The notes under the pieces: generated by a model
Databases searched by the model: none
What the model was told of the DNA's origin: nothing
What the model saw: the letters and a program-made list of their open reading frames with translations, nothing else
Made by a program: the position numbers and the translations under genes
In this document: piece by piece, positions 11,925 to 29,418 of the stretch
Layout of the letters: the number at the start of each line of letters is the position of its first letter
Position numbering within the stretch: position 1 is the stretch's first letter
Source: Bellilinea caldifistulae
Lineage (GTDB): Bacteria; Chloroflexota; Anaerolineae; Anaerolineales; Anaerolineaceae
Length of the DNA: 32,000 nt
Reading direction: 5' to 3'
Assembly (NCBI RefSeq): GCF_001306055.1
Contig: NZ_LGHJ01000009.1
Span: 30,001 to 62,000, forward strand

Positions 11925-11998
11925 GCCCTCGTAGCTCAATTGGACAGAGCGTTTGCTTGCGGAGCAAAAGGTTGCAGATTCGAGTTCTGCCGGGGGCA
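11925..11998 (+). tRNA. tRNA-Arg, anticodon read as GCG; no encoded CCA
   Basis: Manual cloverleaf: acceptor GCCCTCG/CGGGGGC (one G-U pair), D arm GCTC-AATTGGACA-GAGC, anticodon arm TTTGC-TTGCGGA-GCAAA, variable AGGTT, T arm GCAGA-TTCGAGT-TCTGC, discriminator A. Total 74 nt. Confidence 0.85.
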
Positions 11999-12470
11999 CT
12001 CTGTATTTAAAGTCGCCGACCCCATCGAGGGGTGATATTCGAGCCCTGTCGGGGGCACTCTGTATTTAAGGTCGCCGACCCCATCGAGGGGCGATATTCG
12101 CATTCTGCCGGGGGCACTCTGTATTTAAGGTCGCCGACCCCATCGAGGGGTAATATTCGAGCCCTGTCGGGGCACTCTGTATTTAAGGTCGCCGACCCCA
12201 TCGAGGGGTAATATTTGAGCCCTGCCGGGGGCACTCTGTATTTAAGGTCGCCGACCCCATCGAGGGGTGATATTCGAGCCCTGTCGGGGGCACTCTGTAT
12301 TTAAGGTCGCTGACCCCATCGAGGGGTAATATTCGAGTTCTGCCGGGGGCACCCTGTATTTAAGGTCTCCGACCCCATCGAGGGGTAATATTCGAGTTCT
12401 GCCGGGGGCACCCTGTATTTAAGGTCTCCGACCCCATCGAGGGGTAATATTCGAGCCCTGCCGGGGGCAC
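11999..12470 (+). repeat. Eight tandem ~59-nt direct repeats: 36-nt module plus a copy of the tRNA 3'-terminal 23 nt
   Basis: Units start at 11999, 12058, 12117, 12175, 12234, 12293, 12352 and 12411. The period is 59, once 58. Consensus: CTCTGTATTTAAGGTCGCCGACCCCATCGAGGGGTRATATTCGAG(TT/CC)CTG(C/T)CGGGGGCA. ATTCGAGTTCTGCCGGGGGCAC is identical to tRNA positions 11978-11999. Each unit contains the hairpin ACCCC-ATCGA-GGGGT. Confidence 0.95.
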
Positions 12471-12500
12471 CTTCACAGGGATTCCATCCCTGTACCTCGC

Positions 12501-12538
12501 AACGCATCCAATGGATCCCTGGATGCGTTTTATGTTTT
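12501..12538 (+). terminator. Rho-independent terminator closing the tRNA/repeat unit
   Basis: 10-bp stem AACGCATCCA / TGGATGCGTT, 9-nt loop, then TTATGTTTT. A smaller hairpin, ACAGGGAT-TCC-ATCCCTGT, lies at 12475-12493. Confidence 0.8.
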
Positions 12539-12542
12539 CAGC

Positions 12543-13030
12543 ATGGAAGTTAAGATCCTCGAAGGGACGATTCCACATGGGGAGATGCGGGGCATGCATC
12601 CATTAGACATTTATGTTCCTCAACAAGGGCTAGTACTGGTGCAAGCCGAAGTGGACCTCAAGGAAAATGAGTTGTTGTCGCTCCCAACGAGCCAAACAAG
12701 TCACCTTGGGCGGGGCGATTGTCTTCGGAGATGCTTTGCACGCCCAGCGAGAGACTTCCGCTCAGGTTGTTGGAAAACAGCAGAGACAATCTGTATCAAG
12801 CACGGACAGAGTGGGCAATCCATAGGCTGTTTATGCGTGAAATAGGTAACCTCAAGCAGGGTACAGCCCTCTCCCAAAATTGCCGTTTGGTATCTGGGGT
12901 GCATAAAGAGCATGGATGCCTTGAAAAGAAGCCAATTCTGGTCAGCACCGATCTGAACGAGTATTTGGATTGGCCTGAAGTCGGTCAAGTATTTCGTCTG
13001 GAGTGTAAAGTTTGGCACGAGAAGGGCTGA
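12543..13030 (+). pseudogene. ISAs1-family transposase remnant (N-terminally truncated, at least two frameshifts, internal deletion)
   Basis: Family-typical motifs are split over three frames: GTIPHGEMRGMHPLDIYVPQQGLVLVQAEVDLKENE, then GAIVFGDALHAQRETSAQVV, then VHKEHGCLEKKPILVSTDLNEYLDWPEVGQVFRLECKV. No intact ORF spans them. Confidence 0.7.
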
Positions 13031-13191
13031 CGCTAATAATCTGCTGGTTTTACCTTGTCTTTGCAATGGGTTGGCAAGTTTCGCCTAAGCCCTCCGTGTG
13101 CTTTGTACTCAACCAAGGTATACTCTGCAGTAAATTTTTTCGCTTAAAAATCCTTTCTTGTGAAAGCTCTGGAATTTCAGGATAACGGATC

Positions 13192-13220
13192 TTGTAAATT
13201 GAATCCTAATTTGATATAAT
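13192..13220 (+). promoter_or_regulatory. Extended -10 promoter upstream of the SorC-family regulator
   Basis: TTGTAA (13192-13197), 17-nt spacer, TGaTATAAT (13212-13220). A 14-bp palindrome TGAGCATTTGCTCA follows at 13239-13252. Confidence 0.55.
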
Positions 13221-13237
13221 GTTCTTATGCACACTTA

Positions 13238-14233
13238 ATGAGCATTTGCTCACATAAAAAATTTTGGAATTTTCCCATGCTCACTCAAATTGATTACGAA
13301 GAATATCGTTTGTGTGTACGAGTTGCAAAACTGTACTATGAAAATGGTTTAACCCAAAATGAAATTGCTTGGAAACTGGGTGTTTCCCGTGTGACGGTTT
13401 ACCGATTGCTCAACAAAGCAGTGGAACTGGGAATTGTTGAAATTAAAGTACATGCTACTGTTGGGGAGAATTTCGACCTTGAACAAGAGTTGATTATTCG
13501 CCATAATCTACGAGATGCGGTAGTGGTTCCTGATCCTGAAGGGGAAGAAAGCATCTATCTGGCATTAGCGCGCGGTGCCGCTGATTGGTTAAAGCGAAAC
13601 CTAAAAAATGGTATGCGAGTTGGTTTAGGTTTGGGACGAACAATTTCCCATCTGCCTTTAGTTTTTTCTACAGACTCACCAATTAATTGCACATTTACTG
13701 AAGTGGTTGGTGGGGCTTCGGATCATTCCGGTGGTTTTGCAAAGTACAACGTTACCTCTAAGATGGCTGAACTAGCAGGGGGCAAAGCTGAAATTCTTTA
13801 TGCTCCAAATATGGTCTCAAGTCCTGAACTGCAAAAAAGCCTACTCAACGAACCTACAATTTCGCAAGCACTGGAGCGCGCTCGTCATTCTGATATTATC
13901 CTGCAAAGCGTGGGGACGGTTGATGAAACAGCGATTCTGTATGTAGAAAAGAAGATAACTCTTGACGAATTGCACGAAATCCAGAATTCTGGAGCAGTAG
14001 GAGATGCTTTGGGTCACTATTTTGACCAGAACGGCCAATTGGTTTCAACTTTTTTAGACAATCGTATTATTGGCATTAGTCTGGAAGATTTAAAAAAAGT
14101 ACCATGGAGCGTTTTGATTGCGGGCGGGGATGAAAAGAAACCGGTGATTAAGGCAGCTTTGAAAAGCACCTGTTTTAATGTTCTTGTTACTAATGTAGAT
14201 ACTGCTCGATACTTGCTTATCGAAAGGGATTGA
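13238..14233 (+). CDS. SorC/DeoR(Bsu)-family sugar-binding transcriptional regulator
   Basis: N-terminal HTH LTQNEIAWKLGVSRVTVYRLLNKAVELGIV followed by a SorC-type sugar-phosphate-binding domain. The true start may be ATG 13277 (MLTQIDYEEY). Confidence 0.8.
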   Translation: MSICSHKKFWNFPMLTQIDYEEYRLCVRVAKLYYENGLTQNEIAWKLGVSRVTVYRLLNKAVELGIVEIKVHATVGENFDLEQELIIRHNLRDAVVVPDPEGEESIYLALARGAADWLKRNLKNGMRVGLGLGRTISHLPLVFSTDSPINCTFTEVVGGASDHSGGFAKYNVTSKMAELAGGKAEILYAPNMVSSPELQKSLLNEPTISQALERARHSDIILQSVGTVDETAILYVEKKITLDELHEIQNSGAVGDALGHYFDQNGQLVSTFLDNRIIGISLEDLKKVPWSVLIAGGDEKKPVIKAALKSTCFNVLVTNVDTARYLLIERD

Positions 14234-14237
14234 AATA

Positions 14238-14675
14238 ATGCTTGCAGATTATTTAACTCCTGATGTCATTCGGTTAAGAATACGGGTTAGTAATTGGCAA
14301 GAAGCTGTACGTGCTGGAGGTCAATTGCTGATGCAGGCAGGTAAATGTGGGTTATCTTACGTTGAATCTATGGTGCGAGCCGTGCAGGAAATGGGACCTT
14401 ACATGGTTTTGGCTCCGGGTTTAGCTTTAGCGCATGCCCGACCAGAAGATGGTGCAGATGTGGTGGGACTTTCACTTGTGACTCTTGCTACACCAGTGGA
14501 ATTCGGCTCGGAAACTAATGATCCTGTAAGTGTGGTTATTTCCTTCTGTGCTCCAGATCGTGAAAGCCATATTGGAATGCTTCAGTCGCTTGCAGAATTT
14601 CTGATCAACGAAGACAATCAACGACTTTTGAAAACGGCTGAAACGGTTGATGAGATATTATCAGCTGTCATTTGA
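14238..14675 (+). CDS. ulaC: PTS EIIA component, L-ascorbate family (UlaC/SgaA-like)
   Basis: GPYMVLAPGLALAHARPEDG matches the UlaC phosphorylation-site region [20 protein letters not shown]. Size is 145 aa. The symbol is family-level only. Confidence 0.8.
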   Translation: MLADYLTPDVIRLRIRVSNWQEAVRAGGQLLMQAGKCGLSYVESMVRAVQEMGPYMVLAPGLALAHARPEDGADVVGLSLVTLATPVEFGSETNDPVSVVISFCAPDRESHIGMLQSLAEFLINEDNQRLLKTAETVDEILSAVI

Positions 14676-14705
14676 TTTTTTACCCATGAAAGAAAGGAGA
14701 GAGAA

Positions 14706-15005
14706 ATGAAAAAGCCACGCGTGATGATGGTATGCGGTTTTGGCCTTGGCTCTAGCATGATTTTAAAGATTACTGTTGATGGTGTTCTCAAGGAACATGG
14801 TTTGGGTGCAGAAACATTCTGTGCTGATGCTACTACGGCGAGCGGCGAGTCGTATGACATGATATTTACTTCCAAAGAAATGGCTAATTTATTTAAGAAC
14901 ACAACGAAACCAGTAGTTGTAATCGAAAATTTTCTTAGCAAACAAGAAGTGCTCGATAAGGGATTACCGGTTTTGCGGAAATTAATTGAGGAGTTGAATC
15001 CTTGA
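14706..15005 (+). CDS. ulaB: PTS EIIB component, L-ascorbate family (UlaB/SgaB-like)
   Basis: Active-site Cys context VMMVCGFGLGSSMILK (UlaB: ILAVCGNGQGSSMIMK). 99 aa. AAGGAGAG RBS. The symbol is family-level only. Confidence 0.8.
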   Translation: MKKPRVMMVCGFGLGSSMILKITVDGVLKEHGLGAETFCADATTASGESYDMIFTSKEMANLFKNTTKPVVVIENFLSKQEVLDKGLPVLRKLIEELNP

Positions 15006-17176
15006 AAGACTTTTCGGATACTTTCAAGTATGGGGCTTCATATTCCCCCTTGATATTCAGTGAAACCGAATGGGAGAGTGATTTGCGGCTGATGCAGGCA
15101 GCCGGGATGAACTTGATTCGCATTGGGGATGTACATGGTTCTTGGGACTTAATCGAACCGCGCGAGGGTGATTTTGAATTTGAAAAACTGGGGCGTTTTT
15201 ATCGGTTAGCTGCTCAATATGGGATCGAAATTCTGATAAGCACAGGGGCTGCTTCCCCACCGCTATGGCTAGCAAATCGTTACCCCGATGTAGTAATCCT
15301 TTCAAACCGTGGTGAACGTTATCCTCTAGGTGCCTCCTATCACTGGGCTTGTATTCACCATCCTGGCTACTTGGCAGCCCTGAAAAATTATCTACAGGCA
15401 TTGTTAGGTTTTACAGTCCAGCACCCAAACCATTTTGGATGGCAAATATCTAACGAAATTGGTTTCCCATTTCTTCCTGCCCGTGGAGAAAATGATCTAA
15501 GCCTTTATTGTTATTGTCCATATTGCGTCGAGAGATTTCGCGACTGGCTTAGAACCAAATACCCAAGCTTAGAACATCTCACAAAAGCTTGGGGATGGGG
15601 TACAACTTATCTGGTTTATAACGATTGGCAAGAGGTATTCGCACCTGAGGCTTTGCCCTCTGGCTGGGCAGGGGTTACCCGTTGGATAGACTGGCGCTTA
15701 TTTTGGCAGCAAGCCTTTGCGGATTTTGCGGGTTGGCAACATAGAATTATCAAACAACACGATCCATCCCACCCAACCTCAGTCAACACATTTAATTTCA
15801 AAAGCTATGATCGATTCGGTGTGATCACGGGTCTGGATCAATGGAAGATAGCCAGGGAGGTTGACCATATTGGTTATGATCTTTATCCAGGCAGCGGCAA
15901 CAAATTAGCAACTCGTCCGGAACATATTTCGATATTCCTCGATCACGGTCGAAGCGTAAGCCAGTCCGTAGAACGGGATTTCTGGCTACATGAGGTGGAA
16001 AGTGGGCCAATTGGCGGTTGGATAATGGGTCCGGACTACAACACCAAATCTGAAGATGTAAATAATTATCTAATAGAGTCGGTTGGGCATAATGCTAAAC
16101 TCGTTTTATTTATGCCTTGGCGAGAATGGGATTACCAACCTCTGCGCTGGGGAGCGATAGTTGACCTAGATGGTCATCCTAGTGAGCGATATACCACTGC
16201 TACCCAATGGGGAGAGTTCCTTTCAAGATATGGAAGAATATTGAAGAAAGCTCAATCACCGAGAGGTCAAGTTGCCATCTTTGAATCCAAGTCCAACGCA
16301 ATCTTCTTTCGTGGTATTGGAGAAGAGGAACCACTATTTGAGGCTCAACGTGGAGCTTATCGTGGCTTTTGGGAATTAGATTTTGGAGTGGACTTTATAA
16401 CGGCCGCTGAAATAACAAAGGGTCGTTGGCAGGAATATCAGGTCATTATTCTACCGATGATCGGTTTATTGGATATTGAGACGGCTAAAAATCTGGCTGA
16501 ATTTGGCAAACAGGGCGGTCTTTTGGTGGGATTTTCTCGTTTTGCCACGTTGAATGAACAAGGTTGGTATCATCACCAGATCCCAGTACCGCCATTGAAA
16601 AATGTCTTTGGTTTTGAAGATGTTCAGGCAGACTGTCTTAACCAACATCGAATTTTATACAGTGGTAAGTGGTACCCATCTTTTTGGAATCGAGATCTAT
16701 TAAAAATTGGTGCATCTGTCCAAGTTTTAGCTGAATTTGATGATCGGTTTCCTGCAGTGACCTTATCGCAATTTGGAAGAGGATATGGCCTCTACTTTGC
16801 TACACAGGCAGACTCAGGCTATCTTAAATCTGATCAACCACTACTTAAGGCAGTTCTCCAAAGGGTTTTGCCACAATTAAAAATTATGCCGCAAATTCAA
16901 ATTGATTATAAAGGAAAAAAATCTCGCCGAATTGATCATCATTATCTTGAACTGCCTAATAAAAAGTTAGTTCTGATTAGCAACTATCACGAACAGAGTG
17001 TTGATCTTAACCTTTATCTCAATACAACCAACTGGAAAAAGAAAATATTATCCATTCAACAAGTTTTTCCCGTGGTTAAACAAATTGAGTGGGAAATGGT
17101 CAACGACTCTTTACAAATTCATTTTCAGTTAAATACCAAGGAGGTGTCTGTCATTGAAATCGAATTAATCGAATAA
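15002..17176 (+). CDS. Glycoside hydrolase family 42 (beta-galactosidase-like)
   Basis: GH42 N-terminal TIM-barrel pattern (WESDLRLMQAAGMNLIRIG..WDLIEPREGDFEF, ISNEIG) and the Cys cluster CYCPYCVERFRDWL. The TTG start overlaps the EIIB stop (TTGA). Confidence 0.75.
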   Translation: MKDFSDTFKYGASYSPLIFSETEWESDLRLMQAAGMNLIRIGDVHGSWDLIEPREGDFEFEKLGRFYRLAAQYGIEILISTGAASPPLWLANRYPDVVILSNRGERYPLGASYHWACIHHPGYLAALKNYLQALLGFTVQHPNHFGWQISNEIGFPFLPARGENDLSLYCYCPYCVERFRDWLRTKYPSLEHLTKAWGWGTTYLVYNDWQEVFAPEALPSGWAGVTRWIDWRLFWQQAFADFAGWQHRIIKQHDPSHPTSVNTFNFKSYDRFGVITGLDQWKIAREVDHIGYDLYPGSGNKLATRPEHISIFLDHGRSVSQSVERDFWLHEVESGPIGGWIMGPDYNTKSEDVNNYLIESVGHNAKLVLFMPWREWDYQPLRWGAIVDLDGHPSERYTTATQWGEFLSRYGRILKKAQSPRGQVAIFESKSNAIFFRGIGEEEPLFEAQRGAYRGFWELDFGVDFITAAEITKGRWQEYQVIILPMIGLLDIETAKNLAEFGKQGGLLVGFSRFATLNEQGWYHHQIPVPPLKNVFGFEDVQADCLNQHRILYSGKWYPSFWNRDLLKIGASVQVLAEFDDRFPAVTLSQFGRGYGLYFATQADSGYLKSDQPLLKAVLQRVLPQLKIMPQIQIDYKGKKSRRIDHHYLELPNKKLVLISNYHEQSVDLNLYLNTTNWKKKILSIQQVFPVVKQIEWEMVNDSLQIHFQLNTKEVSVIEIELIE

Positions 17177-17240
17177 TAAACACAACCTGAATCTTCACAT
17201 TTCCATCCAAATTTCCAAAATCTAAATAAGGAGTATCAAA

Positions 17241-18521
17241 ATGGACGTCGGATTAATATTCAGTATCGTTCCTCGTTTACTACCTACATTTATGCTGGGG
17301 TTGGTTGCGCTCATAGGGTTATTATTGCAACGCAAAACCTTAAGCGAAGTCATTGCCGGCACGATTAAAACGATGGCGGGAGTTATCATCTTATTCTCCG
17401 CAGTGGATCTCCTGGTTGGGGTTATCTCACCTATCTCAACCATGTTTGGTAAGGTGTATGCTTTCCAGGGAGAGCCCATCAGCGTAGATTGGACAGCTTT
17501 TTTAAGCGAATACGGGATTCCCGTTGTGTTGGTGATGGTATTTGGTTTTTTTGTTAACATCGTGCTTGCGAGGCTAACCAAACTAAAATATGTCTTCCTG
17601 ACCGGACACATCATGTTTTGGAATGCCTTTATGGTAGTAGCCGCATTAGCCGATGCCGGGAAAATTAAGGGCGTAGCATTGATTGTTCTAGGAAGCTTGA
17701 TACAGGGGATCCTATCTACAATTTTGCCTGCCTTGATCGCTCCCTTTGTCTTCAAATTAACTGGAACAAAGGATTTCACAATTGGCCATACAACCACTAT
17801 TCTGGCCGTCATTGGAGCCTGGCTAGGAAAATTGGTTGGTGATCCATCCAAGTCCACCGAAGATTTGAAAATCTCCGATAATTGGAGTTTTCTCAAATCA
17901 ATGACAATTTCAACCTCGCTGATAATGTTTTTACTGTACCTCGTAATGGGCTTCATTGCTGGCCCAGCATGGGCAGCCGAAACTTTCTCGGGCGGTTCTC
18001 AACCAATCTGGTATCTTTGGATTATTTACCAGGGTATTCTTTTTGGTGCTTCCTTAACCATTTTGCTCACTGGTGTTCGTCTAATGTTAGCGGAGATTGT
18101 GCCAGCGTTCCATGGGATTGCCAAAAAGGTTGTCCCTGATGCCATACCAGCATTAGATTGCCCGATGGTATTTCCATACGCACAAAACGCCCTCGCAATT
18201 GGTTTCCCGATTGCGATGATTACCTCACTAATCACGCTGGTCATCTTTGGGGCAATTGGGTATCGTTATGTTTTGTTGCCATTGGTGGTTGCCGCTTTCT
18301 TCGATGTAGGACCGGCTGCCGTACTTGCAAATGCGACGGGTGGAAGGCGAGGAGCAATCGTTGCATCTGCTGTTGGAGGCGTGATGCTAATAGTCCTTCA
18401 AGCGCTTTCGTTGCCATTTGTAGCAAATACCGCTGCGGGTTTTATCAATGCGTTTGGAGGAAATGATTTCTCCGTTATTGCGATTGTTGTAGGTGGAATA
18501 GCCCGCTTACTTGGTTTTTAG
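17241..18521 (+). CDS. ulaA: PTS EIIC component, L-ascorbate family (UlaA/SgaT-like)
   Basis: Polytopic membrane protein collinear with UlaA: TIKTMAGVIIL, FLTGHIMFWNA, FTIGHTTT, STEDLKISDNWSFLKSMTIS, GVRLMLAEIVPAFHGIAKKVVPDAIPALDC. AAGGAG RBS. The symbol is family-level only. Confidence 0.9.
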   Translation: MDVGLIFSIVPRLLPTFMLGLVALIGLLLQRKTLSEVIAGTIKTMAGVIILFSAVDLLVGVISPISTMFGKVYAFQGEPISVDWTAFLSEYGIPVVLVMVFGFFVNIVLARLTKLKYVFLTGHIMFWNAFMVVAALADAGKIKGVALIVLGSLIQGILSTILPALIAPFVFKLTGTKDFTIGHTTTILAVIGAWLGKLVGDPSKSTEDLKISDNWSFLKSMTISTSLIMFLLYLVMGFIAGPAWAAETFSGGSQPIWYLWIIYQGILFGASLTILLTGVRLMLAEIVPAFHGIAKKVVPDAIPALDCPMVFPYAQNALAIGFPIAMITSLITLVIFGAIGYRYVLLPLVVAAFFDVGPAAVLANATGGRRGAIVASAVGGVMLIVLQALSLPFVANTAAGFINAFGGNDFSVIAIVVGGIARLLGF

Positions 18522-18537
18522 AGGGTTCCGAATTCTG

Positions 18538-18571
18538 GTCTCCTAATCGGTAATATTACCGATTAGGAGAC
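18538..18571. repeat. 34-nt perfect inverted repeat in the EIIC-epimerase intergenic spacer
   Basis: GTCTCCTAATCGGTAAT / ATTACCGATTAGGAGAC: 17-nt arms, no mismatches, no trailing T-tract. It lies 17 nt after the EIIC stop and 24 nt before the next ATG. Confidence 0.9.
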
Positions 18572-18594
18572 TACATAGGGATTAAGGAGAGAAG

Positions 18595-19440
18595 ATGTTG
18601 CCCGTTGGAATTCACCTTTCTTACTGGCAAGTTAACTGGCAAGACGATCTTCAACCGCTTATTGGTAAAGCCAAGTCGGCTGGCTTTGATGTTGCTGAGT
18701 TTCCTATATTAGAACCGCGTAAGTTGAACCTCAAAAATCTCCGCCGAACCCTTGATCATGAGGGAATGTTGGCATCCTGTGGGACTGGACTGGATACCAA
18801 GCGTGATATATCGAGTCCTGATCTCTCCATCCGGCAGGCGGGTGTTTCTCATTTGCGAGCCTGCATAGAATCTGCAGCCATATTAGGAAGCCCGGTTTTA
18901 GGCGGCGTGATTTATACTGCTTGGGGAGATATACCACCAAAAGATCGTAAACTGCGGCGCGCTTATGCAATTGAAAATCTTCAAATAGCAGCAATGATCG
19001 CAGAAGAGTACGGTGTGTATTTGTGCCTTGAAGTATTGAATCGATTTGAAGGGTGGTTGATTAACACTGTGGAAGAAGGGCTGGAATTGTTAGCAGAGGT
19101 AAACAGTCCATTTGTTAAGTTGCATTTAGATACTTTTCACCTAAATATTGAAGAAGACGATATTGCTTCATCCATTCGGCATGCCGGAGAGAATCTTGGT
19201 CATTTTCATTGCGTTGAGAACAATCGCAAAGTTCCCGGTCGTGGTCATATTCCTTGGGGACAGGTTAGAGATGCTTTAAGAGAAATCGGTTATTCCGGGT
19301 ATTTGGTGACGGAAGCATTTGTAAATCCATCTGGTGAAGTAGGTAATGCATTGTTCATATGGCGTTCACTGGCAGATGATCCTGATCTAGAAGCACGCTC
19401 GGCAGCTGAATTTCTCAAGCGCGAGGTTGCCAATGTATAG
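18595..19440 (+). CDS. Ketose 3-epimerase family protein (D-psicose/D-tagatose 3-epimerase-like, xylose-isomerase-like TIM barrel)
   Basis: Metal and catalytic motifs shared with DPEase/DTEase: LEVLNRFE, LDTFHLNIEE, GHFH, VTEAF. 281 aa. AAGGAG RBS. Confidence 0.7.
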   Translation: MLPVGIHLSYWQVNWQDDLQPLIGKAKSAGFDVAEFPILEPRKLNLKNLRRTLDHEGMLASCGTGLDTKRDISSPDLSIRQAGVSHLRACIESAAILGSPVLGGVIYTAWGDIPPKDRKLRRAYAIENLQIAAMIAEEYGVYLCLEVLNRFEGWLINTVEEGLELLAEVNSPFVKLHLDTFHLNIEEDDIASSIRHAGENLGHFHCVENNRKVPGRGHIPWGQVRDALREIGYSGYLVTEAFVNPSGEVGNALFIWRSLADDPDLEARSAAEFLKREVANV

Positions 19441-21121
19441 CCTCTATGAGTTACGTCTATGGTTCAAACTCCTGGCAGCAAAATTTCAACAACAACAAGA
19501 TTATCTGAACCAATTAGATCAGGCTATCGGGGATGGTGATCATGGCTTCACCCTTGCCAGAGCATTTGCCTCTGCCAACTACGAGATCGAAAAATCCGTA
19601 CCAACCGACCTCGGCATTTTTCTTGATGTGGTTGCCAGTGCAGTTGCTGAAAACGGTGGTGGTGCGATTGGGCCTTTATTAGCGGCTTTTTTTGCAGAAG
19701 GTGGCACGTTGTTTAGAAATCGCACATTTTGGGACATTGTTGATCTGCAAAACTTTTTTGAGCGGGGTGCAAATGCAATTAGCGAATTAGGGGGGGCTAA
19801 GGCTGGCCAGAAAACCTTATTGGATGCTTTGTTACCAGCGGTGCGGGCTTTGAAGGAAAGTCAATTCGACAAAGAGCCGGTTATGGTTGTAAAAAATGCT
19901 CTTGAGGCAGCTTACCGGGGTAGTGAAGCTACTCGCCAGATGGTGGCAACATTTGGTAGAGCTGCTTTCCTAGGAGAACGTTCTATCGGACATCCGGATC
20001 CAGGCGCGATGTCCTTTGTACTCATTATGCAATGTTTATTTGATGCTTTGAATGGCAAACAAGATGAAATTTTGATCACTGATGATACAACAGAGGAAGA
20101 TTTTATTCCACCGGGTAAATTTATCAATCGCCCTGAACATATGATCGCCGAGGATAATCAAGGATTAGCAATGGCCTACCCTGGAATTGTTGAATACCTT
20201 GAGGAAGGGATTTTGGTGAGAAAAAAACCCAAAGCTGAAGGGAAGGTAGGGTTGACAATTGGGCATGGTGGTGGTCATACCCCGTCAATGGGAGGTTTGG
20301 TAGGAGTTGGTCTTTTGGATACCGATGTGTATGGCCCCCTCTTTACCTGTGCTTCAGGAATTAAAATTGCCCGTGCTATTCAGCTGGCGGATCGCCATGC
20401 TGGAGTTGTTTTATTAGTTTCCAATCACAGCGGGGACGTATTAAATGCGCGTATGGCGTTAAGGCGGGCTGCTGAATGGGGAATTGATGTAAAACCAGTT
20501 TATTTAGGGGATGATGTCGCTACTGCTCCACGTTCCGAGATCCATAAGCGGCGTGGTTTAGGAGGATTGTTGTTTGCTCTCAAGATTGGTGGGGCAGCTG
20601 CAGAGATGGGACAGCCAATTAATGAAGTCGTTCGATTGATGGAAAAGGCCAACCTGCATACGGCAACATTGGCGATCGCGACCCGGCCACCAACTCATCC
20701 CGTCAGTGGAAAACCCTTATTCGAACTTCAAAAAGGACAAATGGAGATTGGAACCGGTGTCCATGGGGAAGTAGGCGTTTATCGAGGGCCTATCCTACCG
20801 GCTGAGCAGGTGGTTGAAGTTGTGATCAATCGCTTATTAGATGATTTAGCCGGCTTGCTTCAGAGAAAAGTTTTGGTTTTTTTGAATGGGGCCGGTGGGA
20901 CTTCACATATGGAGTTAAATATTCTCTACCGAAATACTTATTTATTCTTAAAGGATAAAGGTGTTCAGATTGCTGGGGCGGTGGTGGAATCGCTCTTTAC
21001 CACCCTAGAAATGGGGGGGGTCTCATTTTCCCTTTTGGCTATAGATGATGAAATGGAATATTGGTGGCAAAAACCAGCACTGTCAGCTCATTTCCGATGG
21101 CCTACGGATGTAATTTGCTAA
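19433..21121 (+). CDS. Dihydroxyacetone-kinase family protein, permuted fusion (N-terminal DhaL/Dak2, C-terminal DhaK/Dak1)
   Basis: The N-terminal ~200 aa carry DhaL motifs (LDQAIGDGDHG, GGGAIGPL, GQKTLLDALLPA, TFGRAAFLGERSIGHPDPGA). The C-terminal ~340 aa carry DhaK motifs (GLTIGHGGGHTP, SGDVLNA, YLGDDVA, RRGLGG, MEIGTGVHGE, LNGAGGTSHMEL). Start set at ATG 19433, after GAGG. Confidence 0.8.
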   Translation: MYSLYELRLWFKLLAAKFQQQQDYLNQLDQAIGDGDHGFTLARAFASANYEIEKSVPTDLGIFLDVVASAVAENGGGAIGPLLAAFFAEGGTLFRNRTFWDIVDLQNFFERGANAISELGGAKAGQKTLLDALLPAVRALKESQFDKEPVMVVKNALEAAYRGSEATRQMVATFGRAAFLGERSIGHPDPGAMSFVLIMQCLFDALNGKQDEILITDDTTEEDFIPPGKFINRPEHMIAEDNQGLAMAYPGIVEYLEEGILVRKKPKAEGKVGLTIGHGGGHTPSMGGLVGVGLLDTDVYGPLFTCASGIKIARAIQLADRHAGVVLLVSNHSGDVLNARMALRRAAEWGIDVKPVYLGDDVATAPRSEIHKRRGLGGLLFALKIGGAAAEMGQPINEVVRLMEKANLHTATLAIATRPPTHPVSGKPLFELQKGQMEIGTGVHGEVGVYRGPILPAEQVVEVVINRLLDDLAGLLQRKVLVFLNGAGGTSHMELNILYRNTYLFLKDKGVQIAGAVVESLFTTLEMGGVSFSLLAIDDEMEYWWQKPALSAHFRWPTDVIC

Positions 21122-21135
21122 TGATGGAGAACGAA

Positions 21136-22578
21136 ATGAAAACTATTCGAAATTTGAAGGTTGGATTGGTCGGAATGATGTGCACTCCATTTCGTGGAGA
21201 TAAAGAACATTATTTTTTGGAGGATTGGCAAACCCTTTTGGGATTACAGGAGGAATTGGGCTTTGAATTGAAAGTAATCGAAGAAGGTATCTACACAAAG
21301 GATGAGGCTCAACAATCTGCAACTAAGTTGGCTGAATGGGGTGCTGATTTCATCCTGGTACAATCCAGTTCTTTTGCTGCTGGTGAGTTTATTCAGCCAT
21401 TTGCTGCTACTAAAATTCGGTTGGGATTATGGGGTGTACCCGAAGGTGTACCTTCAAAAGAAGGTGGATTGCCATTAAATAGTTTTACAGGTGTTAATCT
21501 TTACAACAGTCTCTTGAGAACTAGATTGGGTTATCCTCATCCCATAAAGTGGTTCTTTGGTCGTGCTGAAAGCCCTACTTTCAGGGAACGGTTCAGTATC
21601 AGTATGCGTGCATTGCGAGCGCTTATCAATTTGCAGGGCAGCCGAATTGGCTTAGCCGGAGGTGTGGCACCCGGTTTTGATAACCTCATAATTAATCCCG
21701 AGGATTTAAAACGGAAACTTGGGGTAGAAATGGTCGAACTAAATTTTGAAAAAGTGCTGGAACGTGCCCAATTATTAAGAGATGATAAACGATTGGAGTC
21801 CGTAAAATCTTCCTTTCTAAAAGAAAACGTGCAATTTGATATCGGCTTGAATGAGCATTTGGAAAAATTATCTCGTTTGCAAATTGCATATTTGCAAATT
21901 GCCGAAGAGGAAGGAATTAATGCATTTGCAATTTCGTGCTGGCCGCGTTTTCAAGCCGATTATGGGGTGGCAGTGTGCAGCCTTCTCGGAGAATTGAATA
22001 CTCTTGGTGTTCCGGCGGCTTGTGAAGGCGATGTACCATCGGCAGTTTCGATGTTAGCGCTTTCGCTGATAAGTAGCGGTACCGTTAGAACCCTGATGGA
22101 TTTGGTCACCCTTGATCCGGCTGACGATAGTGTGCTTTTGTGGCATTGCGGCCCAACCTCGCCACTTCTGGCTGACCAACGAGGTGTAAGAATGGGTTCG
22201 TTATGGTTGTTTGATCAACAAGGAGGAACACCTATCGGATTGCATAATGATCTTACCTTGCAAGCAGGTAGGGTAACCGTAGGGGGTTTCACGGCTGATT
22301 TTGAAAAGGTATTGGTATTCCAAGGTGAAATTGATCCTCATAAGCCTTCCTATAGGGGTAGCAGAGGTTGGTTAAAGAACATTCAAATGCGAAAGAAGCC
22401 GCTCCGAGCGCTTGATCTTGCTGAGACGCTCCTTTCCAGTGGTTTTCAGCATCATTATCCAGTTATTTATGGAGAAGTAGAGGAGGCTTTTTTAGAAATG
22501 GCTGCATGGGCAAATATCCTTGAAATTAAACCTATTGAATACTCCACCCATCTCAAAGCACAGGGATTGCCATGTTAG
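21136..22578 (+). CDS. L-fucose/L-arabinose isomerase family protein (COG2407-like)
   Basis: About 480 aa with VGLVGMM..., ILVQSSSFAAGE, GVPAACEGDVPSAVSMLAL, LLWHCGP, typical of FucI/AraA-like sugar isomerases. Start chosen at ATG 21136, after GGAG. Confidence 0.55.
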   Translation: MKTIRNLKVGLVGMMCTPFRGDKEHYFLEDWQTLLGLQEELGFELKVIEEGIYTKDEAQQSATKLAEWGADFILVQSSSFAAGEFIQPFAATKIRLGLWGVPEGVPSKEGGLPLNSFTGVNLYNSLLRTRLGYPHPIKWFFGRAESPTFRERFSISMRALRALINLQGSRIGLAGGVAPGFDNLIINPEDLKRKLGVEMVELNFEKVLERAQLLRDDKRLESVKSSFLKENVQFDIGLNEHLEKLSRLQIAYLQIAEEEGINAFAISCWPRFQADYGVAVCSLLGELNTLGVPAACEGDVPSAVSMLALSLISSGTVRTLMDLVTLDPADDSVLLWHCGPTSPLLADQRGVRMGSLWLFDQQGGTPIGLHNDLTLQAGRVTVGGFTADFEKVLVFQGEIDPHKPSYRGSRGWLKNIQMRKKPLRALDLAETLLSSGFQHHYPVIYGEVEEAFLEMAAWANILEIKPIEYSTHLKAQGLPC

Positions 22579-23873
22579 TTTCCTTAAAGGAATTACTCGA
22601 AGACGCCGAAGTGGGTAATTATGCCGTTATTGCCCCGGATTTCCCCAATTTAGAAGTAGCGGATGCCTTGCTAAGTTGTGCTGAACAATATAACGCTCCT
22701 TTAGCATTAAGTTTCTCGCCATCGCTTAAGCCTTTTATCGGTTTATCAGATTTTAGTCATTTCATTCGGTTAGTCCGTGAAATGGCAGTGCAGGCGAACA
22801 TACCAGTAGCCTTACATCTTGATCATGCTCATACCATCAAAGAAATTGATGAGGCAATCCAATTGGGTTTTACTTCGGTAATGATTGATGCTAGTACTGA
22901 GCCTTGGGAGACCAATGTGGAACTCAGTAAAAAAGTGGTTGAAATGGCTCACCCATTGGGAATTTCCGTTGAAGCGGAATTGGGACATGTCGCCACAAGC
23001 GGACGTTACCTCAATGATGTTAGTCAGCATGGGTGGTTGACTGACCCTCAGGAAGCAGCGGCCTTTGTGCAATTAACTGGAATTGACGCCTTAGCGGTAG
23101 CGATTGGAACAGTTCATGGTTTATACGCGGGCGAGCCTAATCTGGAATTTGACCGATTACAAGCCATTCGAGAACGAGTTTTGATTCCACTTGTGTTGCA
23201 TGGTTCTTCTGGAACGGGTAAAGAAAAACTACACCGCTGCGTCGATCTAGGAATTCGAAAAATTAATGTTTATTCGGATTTGATCAAGACGATTGTTCAA
23301 AGTGCGCAAGAAGTACTTGCTCACCCAGAGGACGACCCTTTGAATTTTATGCAAGAACAGCGATACGCGATTTATCAGGTTTTAGGTGAGTATATAACAG
23401 TATCGGGCAGCGCTGCAAAGGCGGACAATTTCCGAAATTCTATTAAAAACCGCATTCGATCTCTTTTTTTACAAGGTTACACCTGCGCAGAGGCGATTTA
23501 TCTGGCTTTTGCCGAACGAGAAGGATTTTACTCGGATTATGCATTACAAATTCAAAGCTTGTTAGGTGGGGGTGTTTGCAATCAAGGAGGTATATGTGGT
23601 GCATTATTCGGTGGCCTAGCAGTAATTGCTGCGCGTCACTCCTCTATATTACCGACAGCACGTCTAAAGCGCAAAGAGGCAAATTTTTCCGGTGCCAAGT
23701 TGATCGAATCTTTTAAAGCCCGCCATTCTACGGTTCATTGCATTGACCTGACTGGTACTAACTTTTTGGATGCCGAACAAGTAAAGCAATTTGTGGAAAA
23801 TAAAGGGGTAGAAAGAACTTGCCTTCCTGTATTAATGTCTGTGGCGGATTCGTTATTGGAGAATTTGTCATGA
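22572..23873 (+). CDS. Class II fructose/tagatose-bisphosphate aldolase fused to a C_GCAxxG_C_C domain
   Basis: Residues about 1-285 carry aldolase motifs: VALHLDHAHT, SVMIDAS, VEAELGHV, AIGTVHGLY, LVLHGSSG. Residues about 300-433 carry the second domain: GYTCAEAIYLAFAE, GGGVCNQGGICGALFGG, HCIDL, CLPVL. It overlaps the upstream stop by 7 nt. Confidence 0.8.
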   Translation: MLVSLKELLEDAEVGNYAVIAPDFPNLEVADALLSCAEQYNAPLALSFSPSLKPFIGLSDFSHFIRLVREMAVQANIPVALHLDHAHTIKEIDEAIQLGFTSVMIDASTEPWETNVELSKKVVEMAHPLGISVEAELGHVATSGRYLNDVSQHGWLTDPQEAAAFVQLTGIDALAVAIGTVHGLYAGEPNLEFDRLQAIRERVLIPLVLHGSSGTGKEKLHRCVDLGIRKINVYSDLIKTIVQSAQEVLAHPEDDPLNFMQEQRYAIYQVLGEYITVSGSAAKADNFRNSIKNRIRSLFLQGYTCAEAIYLAFAEREGFYSDYALQIQSLLGGGVCNQGGICGALFGGLAVIAARHSSILPTARLKRKEANFSGAKLIESFKARHSTVHCIDLTGTNFLDAEQVKQFVENKGVERTCLPVLMSVADSLLENLS

Positions 23874-24718
23874 GGAAATATTTAGAATCTGATTTGAGAA
23901 AAATAAGACAAATTCGTTGTTTCTTATTGGACATGGATGGCACGGTCTTTCTAGGGAACCATTTATTGCCGGGTGCTGTGGAATTCATTGAATATTTAGA
24001 AAATGGGGGAATACCTTTTTACTTCCTAACCAATAATTCTTCGCGTTCCAAACGAGACTATGTTGATAAACTGAATAGAATGGGACTTTGCATCACTCAG
24101 GAACGGGTTTTTTCTTCTGGAGAAGCTACTGCGCTATATCTAAAAAAGACAATGCCATCAGCCAGATTGTTCATTGTAGGAACCGACTCTCTAATAGAGG
24201 AATTTAGACAATATGGCTTTGAGATTGATGAAAATCAACCCGAGGCGGTTGTTTTAGGTTTTGATACAACCCTGACCTATTCTAAGTTGTGGAAATTATG
24301 TAATTACGTTCGGCTTGGATTGCCGTATATTGCAACTCATCCCGATATCAATTGTCCAACAGAAAATGGTTCCATGCCGGACATTGGAGCGATGATCGCC
24401 TTTGTTCAGGCATCTACCACACGTTTGCCAGATGTGATCATTGGTAAGCCCAATCCTCCAATCGTTGAAATTGTTTCTGAAAAAAGTGGACTACCACTGG
24501 AAAATACTGCAATGATAGGAGATCGGTTGTATACGGATATCGCCTTAGGTAGGGCTGGGATCACCACTATTCTGGTGTTAACTGGAGAGACTAAATTAGA
24601 AGATGTAGAAGGATCACCATATAAACCGGATGTAATAGTCGAAAGTCTATTAGATTTATATAATTTTTTTGTACAAAACAATGGAGAAAAGAATGGTCTC
24701 AACCACCATCATGATTGA
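23870..24718 (+). CDS. HAD superfamily subfamily IIA sugar phosphatase (NagD-like)
   Basis: Motif I FLLDMDGTV, then LTNNSS, IGKPNP, GDRLYTDI. The ATG overlaps the aldolase stop (ATGA). Confidence 0.8.
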   Translation: MRKYLESDLRKIRQIRCFLLDMDGTVFLGNHLLPGAVEFIEYLENGGIPFYFLTNNSSRSKRDYVDKLNRMGLCITQERVFSSGEATALYLKKTMPSARLFIVGTDSLIEEFRQYGFEIDENQPEAVVLGFDTTLTYSKLWKLCNYVRLGLPYIATHPDINCPTENGSMPDIGAMIAFVQASTTRLPDVIIGKPNPPIVEIVSEKSGLPLENTAMIGDRLYTDIALGRAGITTILVLTGETKLEDVEGSPYKPDVIVESLLDLYNFFVQNNGEKNGLNHHHD

Positions 24719-24983
24719 TCACCCGGCCGGGTTGCATGCCCGCCCGGCGGCTCAGTTTGTCAAAACGGCGGCACGCTTTCCCTGCAAGATCAGTGTGCGT
24801 AAAATCAATTCCGAAAAACCGCCCGCCAACGCCAAAAGCCCCCTCAGCGTGCTGACGCTGGGGGTCAATCAGGGCGACAGTGTCGAAATCGTTGCTGAGG
24901 GCGAGCAGGCTCAGGAAGCAGTTGACGCGCTGGTTGAACTGGTGAAAAGCAATTTCGGCGAGCCGGCAGCCGCTCATTCCTGA
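24693..24983 (+). CDS. ptsH: Phosphocarrier protein HPr
   Basis: His-15 context HPAGLHARPAAQFV and a Ser-46-like region AKSPLSVLTLGV. GGAG lies 6 nt upstream of ATG 24693; ATG 24681 is an alternative start. It overlaps the HAD gene 3' end. Confidence 0.85.
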   Translation: MVSTTIMIDHPAGLHARPAAQFVKTAARFPCKISVRKINSEKPPANAKSPLSVLTLGVNQGDSVEIVAEGEQAQEAVDALVELVKSNFGEPAAAHS

Positions 24984-25004
24984 GGAAGAAAGGAAACTGC
25001 CCCC

Positions 25005-26747
25005 ATGCCTCGATATCAAGGACTACCCGCCTCTCCGGGGATTGCAATTGGCCCGGCGCTGATCTACCGCACCCAAAAAGTCACCTTCACCGAACAGCGG
25101 GTGACCGTCCCGCGCGCCGAGTGGCGGGAATTGCAGCAGGCCATCCAGAAAGCGCACACCCAGTTGACCGCGCTGGAGGAGCGTGCCCGCAAAATGGCTG
25201 GCGAGGAGGAAGCCGCCATCTTCGAGGCACACCGCCTGTTTCTGGATGACGAAGAACTGCTGGCGAAACTGCGCACGATGGTGCTGGAAGAACGGCTGAA
25301 CGCCAAAGCCGCCGTCCATCACGCCTTTGAGCAGTACGCCGAAGCGCTGCTGGGATTGGAGGAGGAGTATTTTCAGGCACGGGCGCAGGATTTGCGGGAT
25401 GTTGCCCAGCGGGTGATGAAGTGTCTGGAGGGGGAGGGTGACGATCCGTCGGTGGAAAGCGCGGCGGAGCCGGTCATTCTGGTGGCGGAAGACCTGACGC
25501 CGTCGGACACGATTCGCTTTGACCGCGAGCAGATTTTGGGGATCGTCACGGCCCGAGGTGGGCCGACCTCGCACTCGGCGATACTGGCGCGGGCGATGGG
25601 TGTGCCGGCGGTGGTCAGTGCGCCGTTCGATTTGAACGAAATCCGCAGTGGGACGCTGGCGATCTTGAACGGCAGCACGGGGCTGTTCAGCGTTGGGCCG
25701 ACCCTGCACGAGTTGGAAGTGGCGCGCAGGGAAAAAGAGGAATGGGAAGCCCGCCGGCGGGCGGAGTTGAGTCAGGCGGAGCTGCCCGCGGTGACCAAGG
25801 ACGGCGCATTTCGGGCGGAGGTGGTCGCCAACATCGGGAGTGTGGAGGATGCCGAGCTGGCGGTTCAGTTTGGAGCCGAGGGGGTAGGGCTGTTCCGCAC
25901 CGAGTTTTTGTACCTGCAGCGCAGCACCATGCCGACCATCACCGAACAGGTGCGCGCTTACCGGCGGGTGTTCGAGGTGATGGGCGAGCGGCCGGTGGTG
26001 GTGCGGACGCTGGACATTGGCGGAGACAAGGAAGTGCCCTACCTGGGGACGGAGAAGGAACCCAATCCGTTTCTGGGGTGGCGGGCGATCCGGATGATAC
26101 GCGAACGGCCGGACGTGCTGGAAAATCAGTTCATGGCGCTGTTGCAGGCTGCCGGGCAGGTGACGGCGGCGGGCATTCGCTGCGACCTGCGCATCATGCT
26201 GCCGATGGTTTCTTCGGTGGCGGAGGTGGAGCGGGCGCGCGAGATTTACGAAGAGGCCTGGAAGGCTCTGGAAGCGCAGGGGAAAGCGCTGCCGGAGAAA
26301 GTCCAGTTTGGGATCATGGTGGAGGTGCCGTCGGCGGCGCTGCTGGCGGATCACTTTGCGCCGCTGGTGGACTTTTTCAGCATTGGGACGAACGACCTGA
26401 CGCAGTACACGCTGGCAGTGGATCGGACGAACGAGCGGGTATCGGTGCTGGCCAGTCCGTATCACCCGGCGGTGCTGCGCTTGATTGAGATGACGATCCG
26501 GGCGGCGCACGCCCACGGCAAGTGGGTGGGTCTGTGCGGCGAGTTGGCGGGTGATCCGCTGGCAGTGCCGCTGCTGTTGGGGCTGCGGCTGGATGAGTTC
26601 AGCATGGTGCCGTCATCCATTCCGACGATCAAGGACTTGATTCGTCGGTGGAGTTTGAAAGGAGCGGAGGAAGTGGCGCAGGGGTGCCTGCGCTTTGGGC
26701 TGGCGGCGGATGTGATTGAGTATTTGAAGAGCCAGACACCACGTTGA
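25005..26747 (+). CDS. ptsI: Phosphoenolpyruvate-protein phosphotransferase (PTS Enzyme I)
   Basis: 580 aa. Active-site His context GGPTSHSAILARAMGVPAVV. PEP-utilising C-terminal domain motifs: GLFRTEFLY, RTLDIGGDK, NPFLGWRAIR, FFSIGTNDLTQY. Confidence 0.95.
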   Translation: MPRYQGLPASPGIAIGPALIYRTQKVTFTEQRVTVPRAEWRELQQAIQKAHTQLTALEERARKMAGEEEAAIFEAHRLFLDDEELLAKLRTMVLEERLNAKAAVHHAFEQYAEALLGLEEEYFQARAQDLRDVAQRVMKCLEGEGDDPSVESAAEPVILVAEDLTPSDTIRFDREQILGIVTARGGPTSHSAILARAMGVPAVVSAPFDLNEIRSGTLAILNGSTGLFSVGPTLHELEVARREKEEWEARRRAELSQAELPAVTKDGAFRAEVVANIGSVEDAELAVQFGAEGVGLFRTEFLYLQRSTMPTITEQVRAYRRVFEVMGERPVVVRTLDIGGDKEVPYLGTEKEPNPFLGWRAIRMIRERPDVLENQFMALLQAAGQVTAAGIRCDLRIMLPMVSSVAEVERAREIYEEAWKALEAQGKALPEKVQFGIMVEVPSAALLADHFAPLVDFFSIGTNDLTQYTLAVDRTNERVSVLASPYHPAVLRLIEMTIRAAHAHGKWVGLCGELAGDPLAVPLLLGLRLDEFSMVPSSIPTIKDLIRRWSLKGAEEVAQGCLRFGLAADVIEYLKSQTPR

Positions 26748-26798
26748 AAATTCGCCTCAGTTGCCATTGCTGGGGACAGACGATCTCTCCTTGCAAGA

Positions 26799-27830: not shown

Positions 27831-27864
27831 TATCCTTGTCGTTTTTCTGGTTTAATTTCTATTC

Positions 27865-29400: not shown

Positions 29401-29418
29401 TCACCCCTTTTTGCGTCT

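Follow-up and report, generated by a model that had tools for sequence, protein, structure and literature searches.

What does an anaerobic bacterium break down with an operon that joins a transporter of the L-ascorbate type of the phosphoenolpyruvate (PEP)-dependent phosphotransferase system (PTS) to a GH42-family glycosidase and a set of ketose enzymes? The question is raised by positions 13238-24718 of a stretch of Bellilinea caldifistulae DNA of 32,000 nucleotides (contig NZ_LGHJ01000009.1, positions 30,001 to 62,000), referred to here as the window. Ten genes, all on the plus strand, follow one another there in the order SorC regulator, EIIA, EIIB, GH42 glycosidase, EIIC, ketose 3-epimerase, DhaL-DhaK kinase, isomerase, aldolase and HAD-IIA phosphatase. 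This content and order had been proposed in a first-pass annotation of the window, and all ten genes were confirmed at their coordinates. The locus is a real, tightly packed operon for sugar uptake and breakdown, present in many anaerobic Chloroflexi, and it probably handles a sugar compound whose breakdown route is undescribed. The reading that we prefer, and to which we give about an even chance, is that of a self-contained catabolic operon for an imported glycoside, which would be taken up by the PTS and cleaved by the GH42 enzyme, the freed aldose then being isomerised, epimerised at C3, phosphorylated and aldol-cleaved. The substrate itself cannot be named from sequence. The genes concerned are as follows.

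13238-14233, plus strand: sugar-binding transcriptional regulator of the SorC/DeoR(Bsu) type (PF04198, 222 bits, with an N-terminal helix-turn-helix)
14238-14675, plus strand: PTS EIIA of the Mtl/Fru/Asc type (PF00359, 98 bits)
14706-15005, plus strand: PTS EIIB, UlaB-like (PF02302; ascorbate IIB models matched)
15002-17176, plus strand: divergent cytoplasmic GH42-family glycosidase (PF02449, catalytic TIM barrel, 199.8 bits against a cut-off of 21; PF08532, trimerisation domain, 65.1 bits against a cut-off of 25.8)
17241-18521, plus strand: PTS EIIC of the ascorbate/galactitol (EIIC-GAT) superfamily (PF03611, 343 bits)
18595-19440, plus strand: ketose 3-epimerase of the D-tagatose/D-psicose 3-epimerase family (PF01261)
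19433-21121, plus strand: DhaL-DhaK kinase (PF02734, Dak2, 154 bits; PF02733, Dak1, 285 bits)
21136-22578, plus strand: aldose-ketose isomerase with a predicted L-arabinose/L-fucose isomerase fold
22572-23873, plus strand: class II (Zn) aldolase (PF01116, 278 bits, residues 3-282) fused to a C_GCAxxG_C_C domain (PF09719, 57 bits, residues 303-427)
23870-24718, plus strand: HAD-IIA sugar-phosphate phosphatase (PF13344, PF13242)
24693-24983, plus strand: ptsH, encoding HPr (PF00381, 103 bits, GLHARPA motif)
25005-26747, plus strand: ptsI, encoding Enzyme I (PF05524, PF00391, PF02896)

Layout and conservation of the operon

Between positions 13238 and 24718 the gene junctions are either overlaps or gaps of 4-73 nt. 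The TTGA overlap noticed earlier between the stop of EIIB and the TTG start of the glycosidase gene (15002) is real and is preceded, 8 nt upstream, by a GAGGAG Shine-Dalgarno sequence. The likely starts of the kinase, isomerase and phosphatase genes are ATG 19433, ATG 21136 and ATG 23870 (ATGA overlap), respectively, and the long TTG-started open reading frames (ORFs) of these three genes probably do not begin at the true starts. The operon extends past 24718, with ptsH overlapping the end of the phosphatase gene by 26 nt and ptsI coming next; ptsH-ptsI also adjoins the operon in three related loci (L009, L010 and L041 in our own numbering).

Patterns derived from the glycosidase retrieved 17 loci in species-representative genomes, all of them labelled Chloroflexota/Anaerolineae, and 22 metagenome loci. 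On every contig of sufficient length, the genes follow the order SorC-IIA-IIB-GH42-IIC-epimerase-kinase-isomerase-(aldolase)-HAD with 50-70% identity of their proteins, and about 30 Anaerolineae/Chloroflexota loci show this pattern. Of the 17 genome loci, 13 share the gene order, as do further metagenome loci, and the arrangement is not due to chance. The flanks of the operon are unrelated between loci, so that the genes move together as one block. Among species-representative genomes the operon is rare all the same: of 300 genomes sampled evenly from the class, 3 have its GH42 subtype, none of the nine genomes of the same order has it, and the closest isomerase match in 400 other genomes of the phylum is 34% identical.

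Uptake, the GH42 glycosidase and the place of the phosphatase

During uptake, Enzyme I and HPr, encoded just downstream, would pass phosphate from PEP to EIIA, then to EIIB and finally to the substrate as it is translocated by EIIC. The phosphorelay residues, read from the translations, are intact in EIIA (active-site His motif LAHARP), EIIB (N-terminal Cys motif MMVCGFGLGSS) and HPr, and together with the adjoining ptsHI they support such a step. EIIC, the best-conserved protein of the operon (63-95% identity in relatives), scores 423 bits against the NCBIfam model NF006919, 'PTS ascorbate IIC', above its cut-off of 380, and 118 bits against E. coli UlaA (4rp8). The best NCBIfam match of EIIA is ascorbate IIA (105 bits), and the ascorbate IIB (UlaB) models are the best match of EIIB. 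The genome has only two EIIC genes, both of the EIIC-GAT superfamily, and none with PF02378. The second belongs to another PTS cluster, located some 8-19 kb past the ptsI of the operon and beyond the end of the window (G000:C31:65392-75574, or L023 5392-15574), which encodes a DeoR regulator, EIIC, EIIB, a class I/II aminotransferase, EIIA, a PRD/EIIA regulator and its own HPr and Enzyme I. Both ascorbate/galactitol-type PTS of the genome hence carry a private ptsHI.

The insertion of a GH42 gene between EIIB and EIIC had been called odd, and to find one within a PTS operon is in fact unusual; the gene has this place in every locus in which that stretch is present. The best solved GH42 enzyme reaches only 137 bits against the operon glycosidase. 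Both catalytic Glu are kept, the acid/base in ISNEIG and the nucleophile in WLHEVE, aligned with E158 and E323 of Gan42B, and the nucleophile column is backed by the E323A mutant entry 5dfa. Across 301 GH42 enzymes, an Arg of the -1 subsite (Arg121 in the B. breve enzyme) is reported to be as conserved as the catalytic Glu and to bond the acid/base Glu, a water and galactose (PMC12887932). In the operon glycosidase, this Arg is replaced by Tyr113 (ASYHWAC), four residues before the Cys of the Zn site. There is in addition an insertion of 13 residues after the acid/base Glu (GFPFLPARGENDLSLY, FPFLPARG...), which bears an Arg, and one of two residues after the nucleophile Glu. Of the 120 closest homologues, at least 104 have the Arg to Tyr exchange (Y-x-W-[AS]-C), 115 the 13-residue insertion with its near-invariant Arg (FPFxPxR), and 116 the changed nucleophile motif W-x-H-E-x-ESGP. 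Five canonical GH42 enzymes from other Anaerolineae genomes keep the Arg and have neither insertion, and the clade has so far been found only in Chloroflexota records. Judged by these motifs, the operon glycosidase is no canonical beta-galactosidase: it belongs to a separate GH42 clade whose active site reads as rebuilt and whose genes are consistently linked to this PTS.

These differences bear on the objection, raised in the first pass, that GH42 enzymes act on non-phosphorylated galactosides. The objection may not apply here, given the separate clade, the Arg to Tyr exchange and the new loops at both catalytic Glu. As a retaining glycosidase, the enzyme would split the phosphorylated glycoside into a sugar phosphate and a free aldose, the phosphate presumably staying on the other half. 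The HAD-IIA phosphatase, which passes TIGR01460 (139.9 bits, cut-off 100.15) and has the motifs DMDGT, LTNNS, GKPN and GDRLYTD, would then act on the phosphorylated half or on excess sugar phosphate, in relief of sugar-phosphate stress.

The same phosphatase is central to a different order of events. In the manner of the MapP maltose pathway of Enterococcus, HAD-IIA could strip the phosphate first and leave a plain glycoside, which the GH42 enzyme would cleave to two free sugars, one or both entering the isomerase, epimerase and kinase steps. The phosphatase, with its motifs intact, closes the operon here and in 13 related loci; isomerase, epimerase and kinase all come from free-sugar families; and it is general knowledge that the known GH42 enzymes use unphosphorylated glycosides. 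However, the phosphatase gene is missing from several otherwise complete loci (L012/L053, L040, L041), the phosphate spent from PEP would be wasted, and both the loss of the Arg and the loops at the two catalytic residues would be left unexplained. We consider such a dephosphorylation before cleavage unlikely.

The ketose module and competing explanations

In the preferred reading, where the glycosidase cleaves the phosphorylated glycoside directly, the free aldose would be converted to a ketose by the isomerase. This protein of 480 aa has no Pfam match, including no AraA/FucI domain, and its sole NCBIfam match is the sulfoquinovose isomerase SftI (NF048012), at 172.6 bits and thus below the cut-off of 700. 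Its AlphaFold model (pLDDT 95.7) is matched by Foldseek to AraA over the whole length (E 4e-28, TM 0.76-0.80) and has TM scores of 0.71-0.75 to FucI and D-arabinose isomerase, the sequence identity to AraA being 14-16%. Residues E297, D299, D322, H337, H439, H440 and E454 are invariant in 47 homologues; E297, D322, H337 and H439 have a spacing similar to that of the Mn-binding E306, E333, H350 and H450 of E. coli AraA, to which they may correspond. In L024, a Zn-dependent dehydrogenase, a relative of the operon glycosidase (36% identity) and a relative of the isomerase (35% identity) lie side by side, with no PTS genes in the 5.4 kb available. That the two remain adjacent even at this distance argues for a functional link between glycosidase and isomerase. 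More distant homologues of the isomerase are found next to an FGGY kinase, a Zn-dependent alcohol dehydrogenase and a GFO/MocA oxidoreductase (G442) or together with an ABC transporter and a Cgl0159-like protein (G351); these contexts are too diverse to name a substrate, and the names of the homologue clusters gave no lead.

The ketose would then be inverted at C3. The epimerase scores 204-218 bits against solved D-psicose and D-tagatose 3-epimerases (DPEases and DTEases), with 218 bits to the D-psicose 3-epimerase 7x7w, and 265.6 bits against the NCBIfam equivalog PsicseEpim, below the cut-off of 300, so that it is a member of the family to which no specific substrate is assigned. Aligned with the Pseudomonas cichorii DTEase 4xsl, it conserves the metal-ligand motifs LEVLNRFE, LDTFH, GHFH and VTEAF as well as the Glu, His and Arg that bind O1-O3; we take the counterparts in 4xsl to be E152, D185, H211 and E246 for the former and E158, H188 and R217 for the latter. 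All catalytic and O1-O3-binding residues of a free-ketose 3-epimerase are therefore present, which supports the epimerase step. Together, epimerase and isomerase show no more than the processing of a free aldose/ketose pair, and the rare ketose or ketose-containing glycoside proposed earlier is still conjecture.

The next step would fall to the DAK-type kinase, which is the sole kinase of the operon and would yield a ketose 1-phosphate, the hydroxymethyl next to the carbonyl being the most plausible site. Its domains are permuted (Dak2 at residues 33-204 and Dak1 at 245-551, in the ORF scanned from TTG 19427), and the DhaK-then-DhaL order of single-chain ATP-dependent enzymes is not found in it. 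The motifs GDGDHG, GRAAFLGERS and DPGA of the DhaL half and GGGH, SGD and GTGVHGE of the DhaK half are conserved, and alignment with solved DhaK and DhaL shows that the substrate-binding His, the Asp/His pair and the Asp-rich Mg site are kept. The two halves score 164 and 108 bits against PTS-dependent DhaK and DhaL, versus 102 and 48 bits against the ATP-dependent enzyme of C. freundii. The genome also encodes DhaK and DhaL as proteins of their own, from genes at the beginning of contig C6, and a DhaM-like protein in a single ORF of 844 aa with EIIA-Man, HPr and EI domains (G000:C28, about 222.7-225.3 kb; L019, L036), so that the phosphoryl donor of the operon kinase may be ATP or a PTS protein. 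The kinase step is supported by this kinase being the only one in the operon and by L045 (13552-21172), in which DAK is absent and an FGGY sugar kinase takes its place: there, the aldolase-C_GCAxxG_C_C fusion is followed by a PHP-like protein, a GT4 glycosyltransferase and the FGGY kinase, and the HAD gene lies upstream on the other strand.

From the kinase, the product would enter central metabolism directly or, where the class II aldolase is encoded, by way of cleavage to dihydroxyacetone phosphate (DHAP) and an aldehyde. The aldolase passes TIGR00167 (247 bits, cut-off 215.6), stays below the cut-offs of all the fructose-bisphosphate aldolase (FBA)- and tagatose-specific equivalogs, and has the Zn and catalytic motifs LHLDH, GTVHG and LHGSSG. 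It is about equally close to FBA, AgaY and YdjI (174-183 bits), and the membership in this family of the ketose-1-phosphate aldolase YdjI (6ofu, 174 bits) supports the proposed step. The suggestion made in the first pass that the route ends in aldol cleavage fits the aldolase encoded here and does not extend to the group as a whole, as about half of the loci that are otherwise complete have no aldolase gene. The fusion of the aldolase to C_GCAxxG_C_C recurs in L010, L038, L044, L054, L056, L045 and L012, whereas in L002, L003, L040 and L048 C_GCAxxG_C_C is a separate gene just upstream. In the sister operon L012 (17568-21139), as in L053 and L025, the last genes do not include HAD; in its place, C_GCAxxG_C_C is fused to a weak aldolase-like domain, and genes for a RuBisCO-like protein of 384 aa and a URO-D/MtaA-like protein of 368 aa come next.

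Several points weigh against this route. Its steps and their order are proposed from sequence. DAK enzymes with known substrates act on C3-C4 ketoses or aldehydes, so that a larger ketose is an extrapolation. The relatives of the isomerase (AraA) and of the epimerase (DTEases and DPEases) use unphosphorylated sugars, which fits only if the glycosidase or the phosphatase frees the sugar. Nor are the last steps fixed, since the aldolase is lacking in about half of the loci complete in other respects and HAD in several. The route leaves the recurrent C_GCAxxG_C_C domain unexplained, and the open-access papers found assign no function to C_GCAxxG proteins. A contact of the loop Arg or the Tyr of the glycosidase with the phosphate group would be a guess. 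Finally, the hairpin that follows EIIC could act as a terminator. This hairpin and the other putative control elements are listed below.

13192-13220, plus strand: promoter-like site (TTGTAA, 17 nt, TG-n-TATAAT), a consensus match only
13239-13252: perfect palindrome TGAGCA-TT-TGCTCA, candidate SorC operator, overlapping the first ATG of the SorC gene
18538-18571, plus strand: hairpin between EIIC and epimerase, with a perfect 17-bp stem, a 4-nt loop and no U-tract

The promoter-like site, with 10 of 12 matches and an extended -10, is one of the two best plus-strand sites in 12400-27100, and the pattern scan found no internal promoter or terminator above chance and no strong promoter-like site upstream of the epimerase. 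The palindrome, a candidate for the operator, has a single exact copy in the window, with near-matches at chance level, and on that account a repeated SorC operator was rejected. The regulator scores 200 bits against B. subtilis DeoR and 144 bits against LsrR, below the NCBIfam cut-off in both cases; an alternative start at ATG 13277 gives it 318 aa, as in relatives, and its gene is the first in 31 related loci. SorC would repress the operon until sugar phosphate builds up.

The stretch between EIIC and epimerase folds at -33 kcal/mol. Strong hairpins of unrelated sequence, some followed by a T-run, occupy the same position in at least nine relatives (L005-L007, L009, L011-L014 and L016), and they separate an uptake and hydrolysis module from a ketose module, whose relative expression the stem-loop may set. 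Because the hairpin is conserved in position and some loci have the first module only (L002 and L003 encode SorC-IIA-IIB-GH42-IIC, the second module being absent), the operon appears to be built of two modules, which are nonetheless co-conserved and tightly linked. Directly upstream of SorC, L002 (1698-8057) and likewise L003 and L040 have a block encoding a GDPD-family phosphodiesterase (about 600 aa), a ribokinase (TIGR02152, above cut-off), a stand-alone C_GCAxxG_C_C protein and two membrane-like proteins of 500 aa, which have no family match and are unrelated to the isomerase. The block is recurrent, and as its membership in the same unit could not be shown, it was not counted as part of the operon.

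Such a division might also mean that the two modules are functionally separate, the PTS and the GH42 enzyme serving one substrate and the remainder the salvage of a rare ketose or of a tetrulose or triose, or else that a monosaccharide PTS is combined with a GH42 enzyme for an internal glycoside. The positionally conserved stem-loop and the two loci with the first module alone would agree with this, as would the general knowledge that DAK enzymes typically use C3-C4 substrates. Against it, 11 genome loci out of 17 and 8 further metagenome loci, which make up most of those reaching beyond EIIC, have the two modules side by side and in an unchanged order, although the flanks are unrelated. The adjacency of glycosidase and isomerase in L024, and the lack of a strong promoter-like site upstream of the epimerase in the scan, also speak for a single function, and we regard separate roles for the modules as quite unlikely.

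If one function is accepted, the family of the glycosidase could suggest that the function is the use of galactosides. The PTS would then import a beta-galactoside and the GH42 enzyme would free galactose or galactose 6-phosphate, which the AraA-like isomerase would turn into tagatose, to be phosphorylated and cleaved by a GatY/KbaY-like aldolase. Pfam places the glycosidase in GH42, AraA is generally known to convert D-galactose to D-tagatose, the aldolase scores equally on tagatose-bisphosphate aldolase and FBA models, and the genome has a galactokinase, while a class I GalT with PF01087 was not found in it. However, the conserved 3-epimerase would be superfluous on the way through tagatose; the glycosidase has lost the Arg with which its family binds galactose; the aldolase is optional; and none of the lacABCD-type enzymes is in the operon. 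A galactoside route is, in our judgement, very unlikely. An ordinary L-ascorbate (ula/sga) utilisation operon, to which the ascorbate-type matches of EIIA (UlaC), EIIB (UlaB) and EIIC would point, can hardly be credited and was rejected, because the ten operon proteins, to which the search was confined, include no UlaG, UlaD, UlaF or UlaE-type enzyme (an absence already noted in the first pass; the epimerase scores 266 bits as a psicose epimerase versus 41 bits as an L-ribulose-5-phosphate 3-epimerase), the regulator is of the SorC type and not UlaR, and EIIC reaches no more than 118 bits against UlaA.

The cleavage of an imported, phosphorylated glycoside followed by breakdown of the free aldose can also be given a more specific form, which we hold to be doubtful. 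The operon glycosidase would be the first GH42-type enzyme for a PTS-phosphorylated or otherwise non-galactose glycoside, and the route, so far undescribed, would serve a sugar whose far end cannot take a phosphate, for instance a deoxy-, sulfo- or thio-sugar. DAK would make the ketose 1-phosphate, from which the aldolase, fused to the Cys-rich C_GCAxxG_C_C domain, would release DHAP and a reactive or sulfur-bearing aldehyde, and in sister operons this fragment would be processed by the RuBisCO-like and URO-D/MtaA-like enzymes.

Origin of the operon and comparison with known systems

The operon has a GC content of 43.5%, versus 52.8% for the genome (3.66 Mb), and in relatives the GC content of the operon equals that of its flanks. 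The simplest reading of the low GC content is that the operon was probably acquired from a lower-GC relative. A mosaic origin, considered in view of the 95% identity of EIIC and the 71% identity of the glycosidase to their nearest relatives, was rejected: over 11.5 kb, the DNA of the nearest relatives is collinear with that of the operon at about 70% identity, so that the difference reflects unequal constraint on the two proteins. At the right boundary, the GC content goes from 39% in the HAD gene to 58% in ptsH and 64% in ptsI (66-79% at third codon positions in ptsH-ptsI), and since the AT-rich end of the HAD gene includes roughly the first eight codons of ptsH, the GC junction falls inside the start of ptsH. 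Upstream of the operon, a tRNA-Arg gene (anticodon GCG) is followed by about eight tandem units of 59 bp, each repeating the 3' end of the tRNA (11925-12470). Short ORFs without a Pfam match lie between this array and the operon (12543-13066), and these ORFs and a fall in GC from about 0.55 to 0.42 indicate where an island has its left edge. On the other side, a separate cluster on the minus strand (27009-31549), likewise of low GC (about 0.44), encodes BtpA, an FGGY kinase, an M29-family protein and a BPD_transp_2 ABC permease.

Little is known of the carbon sources of Anaerolineae, which abound in anaerobic digesters and sediments, and a conserved, dedicated uptake system points to a specific substrate in these environments. 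The native roles of most ketose 3-epimerases and the function of C_GCAxxG_C_C are unknown, and the operon puts both in a defined genetic context, which also includes a DAK kinase of permuted domain order and an AraA-fold isomerase from a branch that has no assignment. If the operon glycosidase does cleave a phosphorylated or non-galactose glycoside, the range of GH42 would be wider, and the Arg to Tyr exchange would be a sequence marker for the subgroup. B. caldifistulae is thermophilic and can be cultured, and its enzymes should therefore be stable and convenient to assay.

The first-pass annotation had concluded that no characterised pathway fits this gene content. In agreement with this, the catabolic enzymes are all below the NCBIfam equivalog cut-offs, and open-access full text yielded no characterised operon with the same gene set, a search to which one described elsewhere would be invisible. 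The D-apiose pathway cluster of E. coli SE15, which has an FGGY kinase, a split transketolase, an ABC transporter and two SDRs but no DAK, GH42 or PTS, was compared and is not the same. The E. coli ula (sga) system resembles the operon in that its EIIA, EIIB and EIIC are likewise encoded as three separate proteins and belong to the same PTS family, and the operon epimerase shares its Pfam family with UlaE. The operon, however, is without a lactonase, decarboxylase or 4-epimerase and has instead an epimerase of the DTE/DPE type, SorC, a glycosidase, an isomerase, DAK and a class II FBA-type aldolase.

A parallel in operon logic is the lactose-PTS/tagatose-6-phosphate system (lacABCDFEG) of Staphylococcus and Lactococcus, in which one operon likewise provides for the uptake of a glycoside by a PTS, for its hydrolysis in the cytoplasm and for an isomerase, a kinase and an aldolase. 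The two differ in every family: GH1 there versus GH42 here, RpiB-type LacAB versus an AraA fold, the PfkB kinase LacC versus DAK, the class I aldolase LacD versus a class II enzyme, and Lac- versus Asc-family EII, with no 3-epimerase in the lactose system. In keeping with this, neither Pfam nor NCBIfam placed any operon protein in the GH1 phospho-beta-galactosidase, LacAB, LacC or LacD families. In the gnb operon of Lactobacillus casei, a mannose-class PTS is combined with GnbG, a GH35 beta-galactosidase, for the use of lacto-N-biose and galacto-N-biose. This operon sets a precedent for an 'ordinary' beta-galactosidase family of clan GH-A that acts, within a PTS operon, on a disaccharide imported by the PTS; it has another PTS class, another GH family and amino-sugar enzymes downstream, and we know of no report of a rebuilt -1 subsite in it.

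For the downstream steps, the nearest models are the ketose-1-phosphate routes (fructose 1-phosphate and triokinase in liver, YdjI in E. coli, and DrdK/I/A for 5-deoxyribose), in which an isomerase, a 1-phosphate kinase and a metal-dependent aldolase lead to DHAP and an aldehyde. These routes are without a PTS, a glycosidase or a 3-epimerase, and their kinases are of the PfkB, FGGY or MtnK types, in contrast to the domain-permuted DAK found here. As for the isomerase, SftI is its nearest named family model, while AraA is its fold match over the whole length. With the canonical GH42 enzymes (Gan42B, 4oif; Thermus A4, 1kwg; Bifidobacterium Bga42A), the operon glycosidase shares the domains, both catalytic Glu and most of the Cys cluster of the Zn site; it differs from them by an identity of about 25-30%, by the Arg to Tyr exchange and the insertions of 13 and 2 aa, and by a gene linked to a PTS. 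The locus is best described as a probable PTS-linked glycoside utilisation operon, of a type known in itself, with a distinct clade of GH42.

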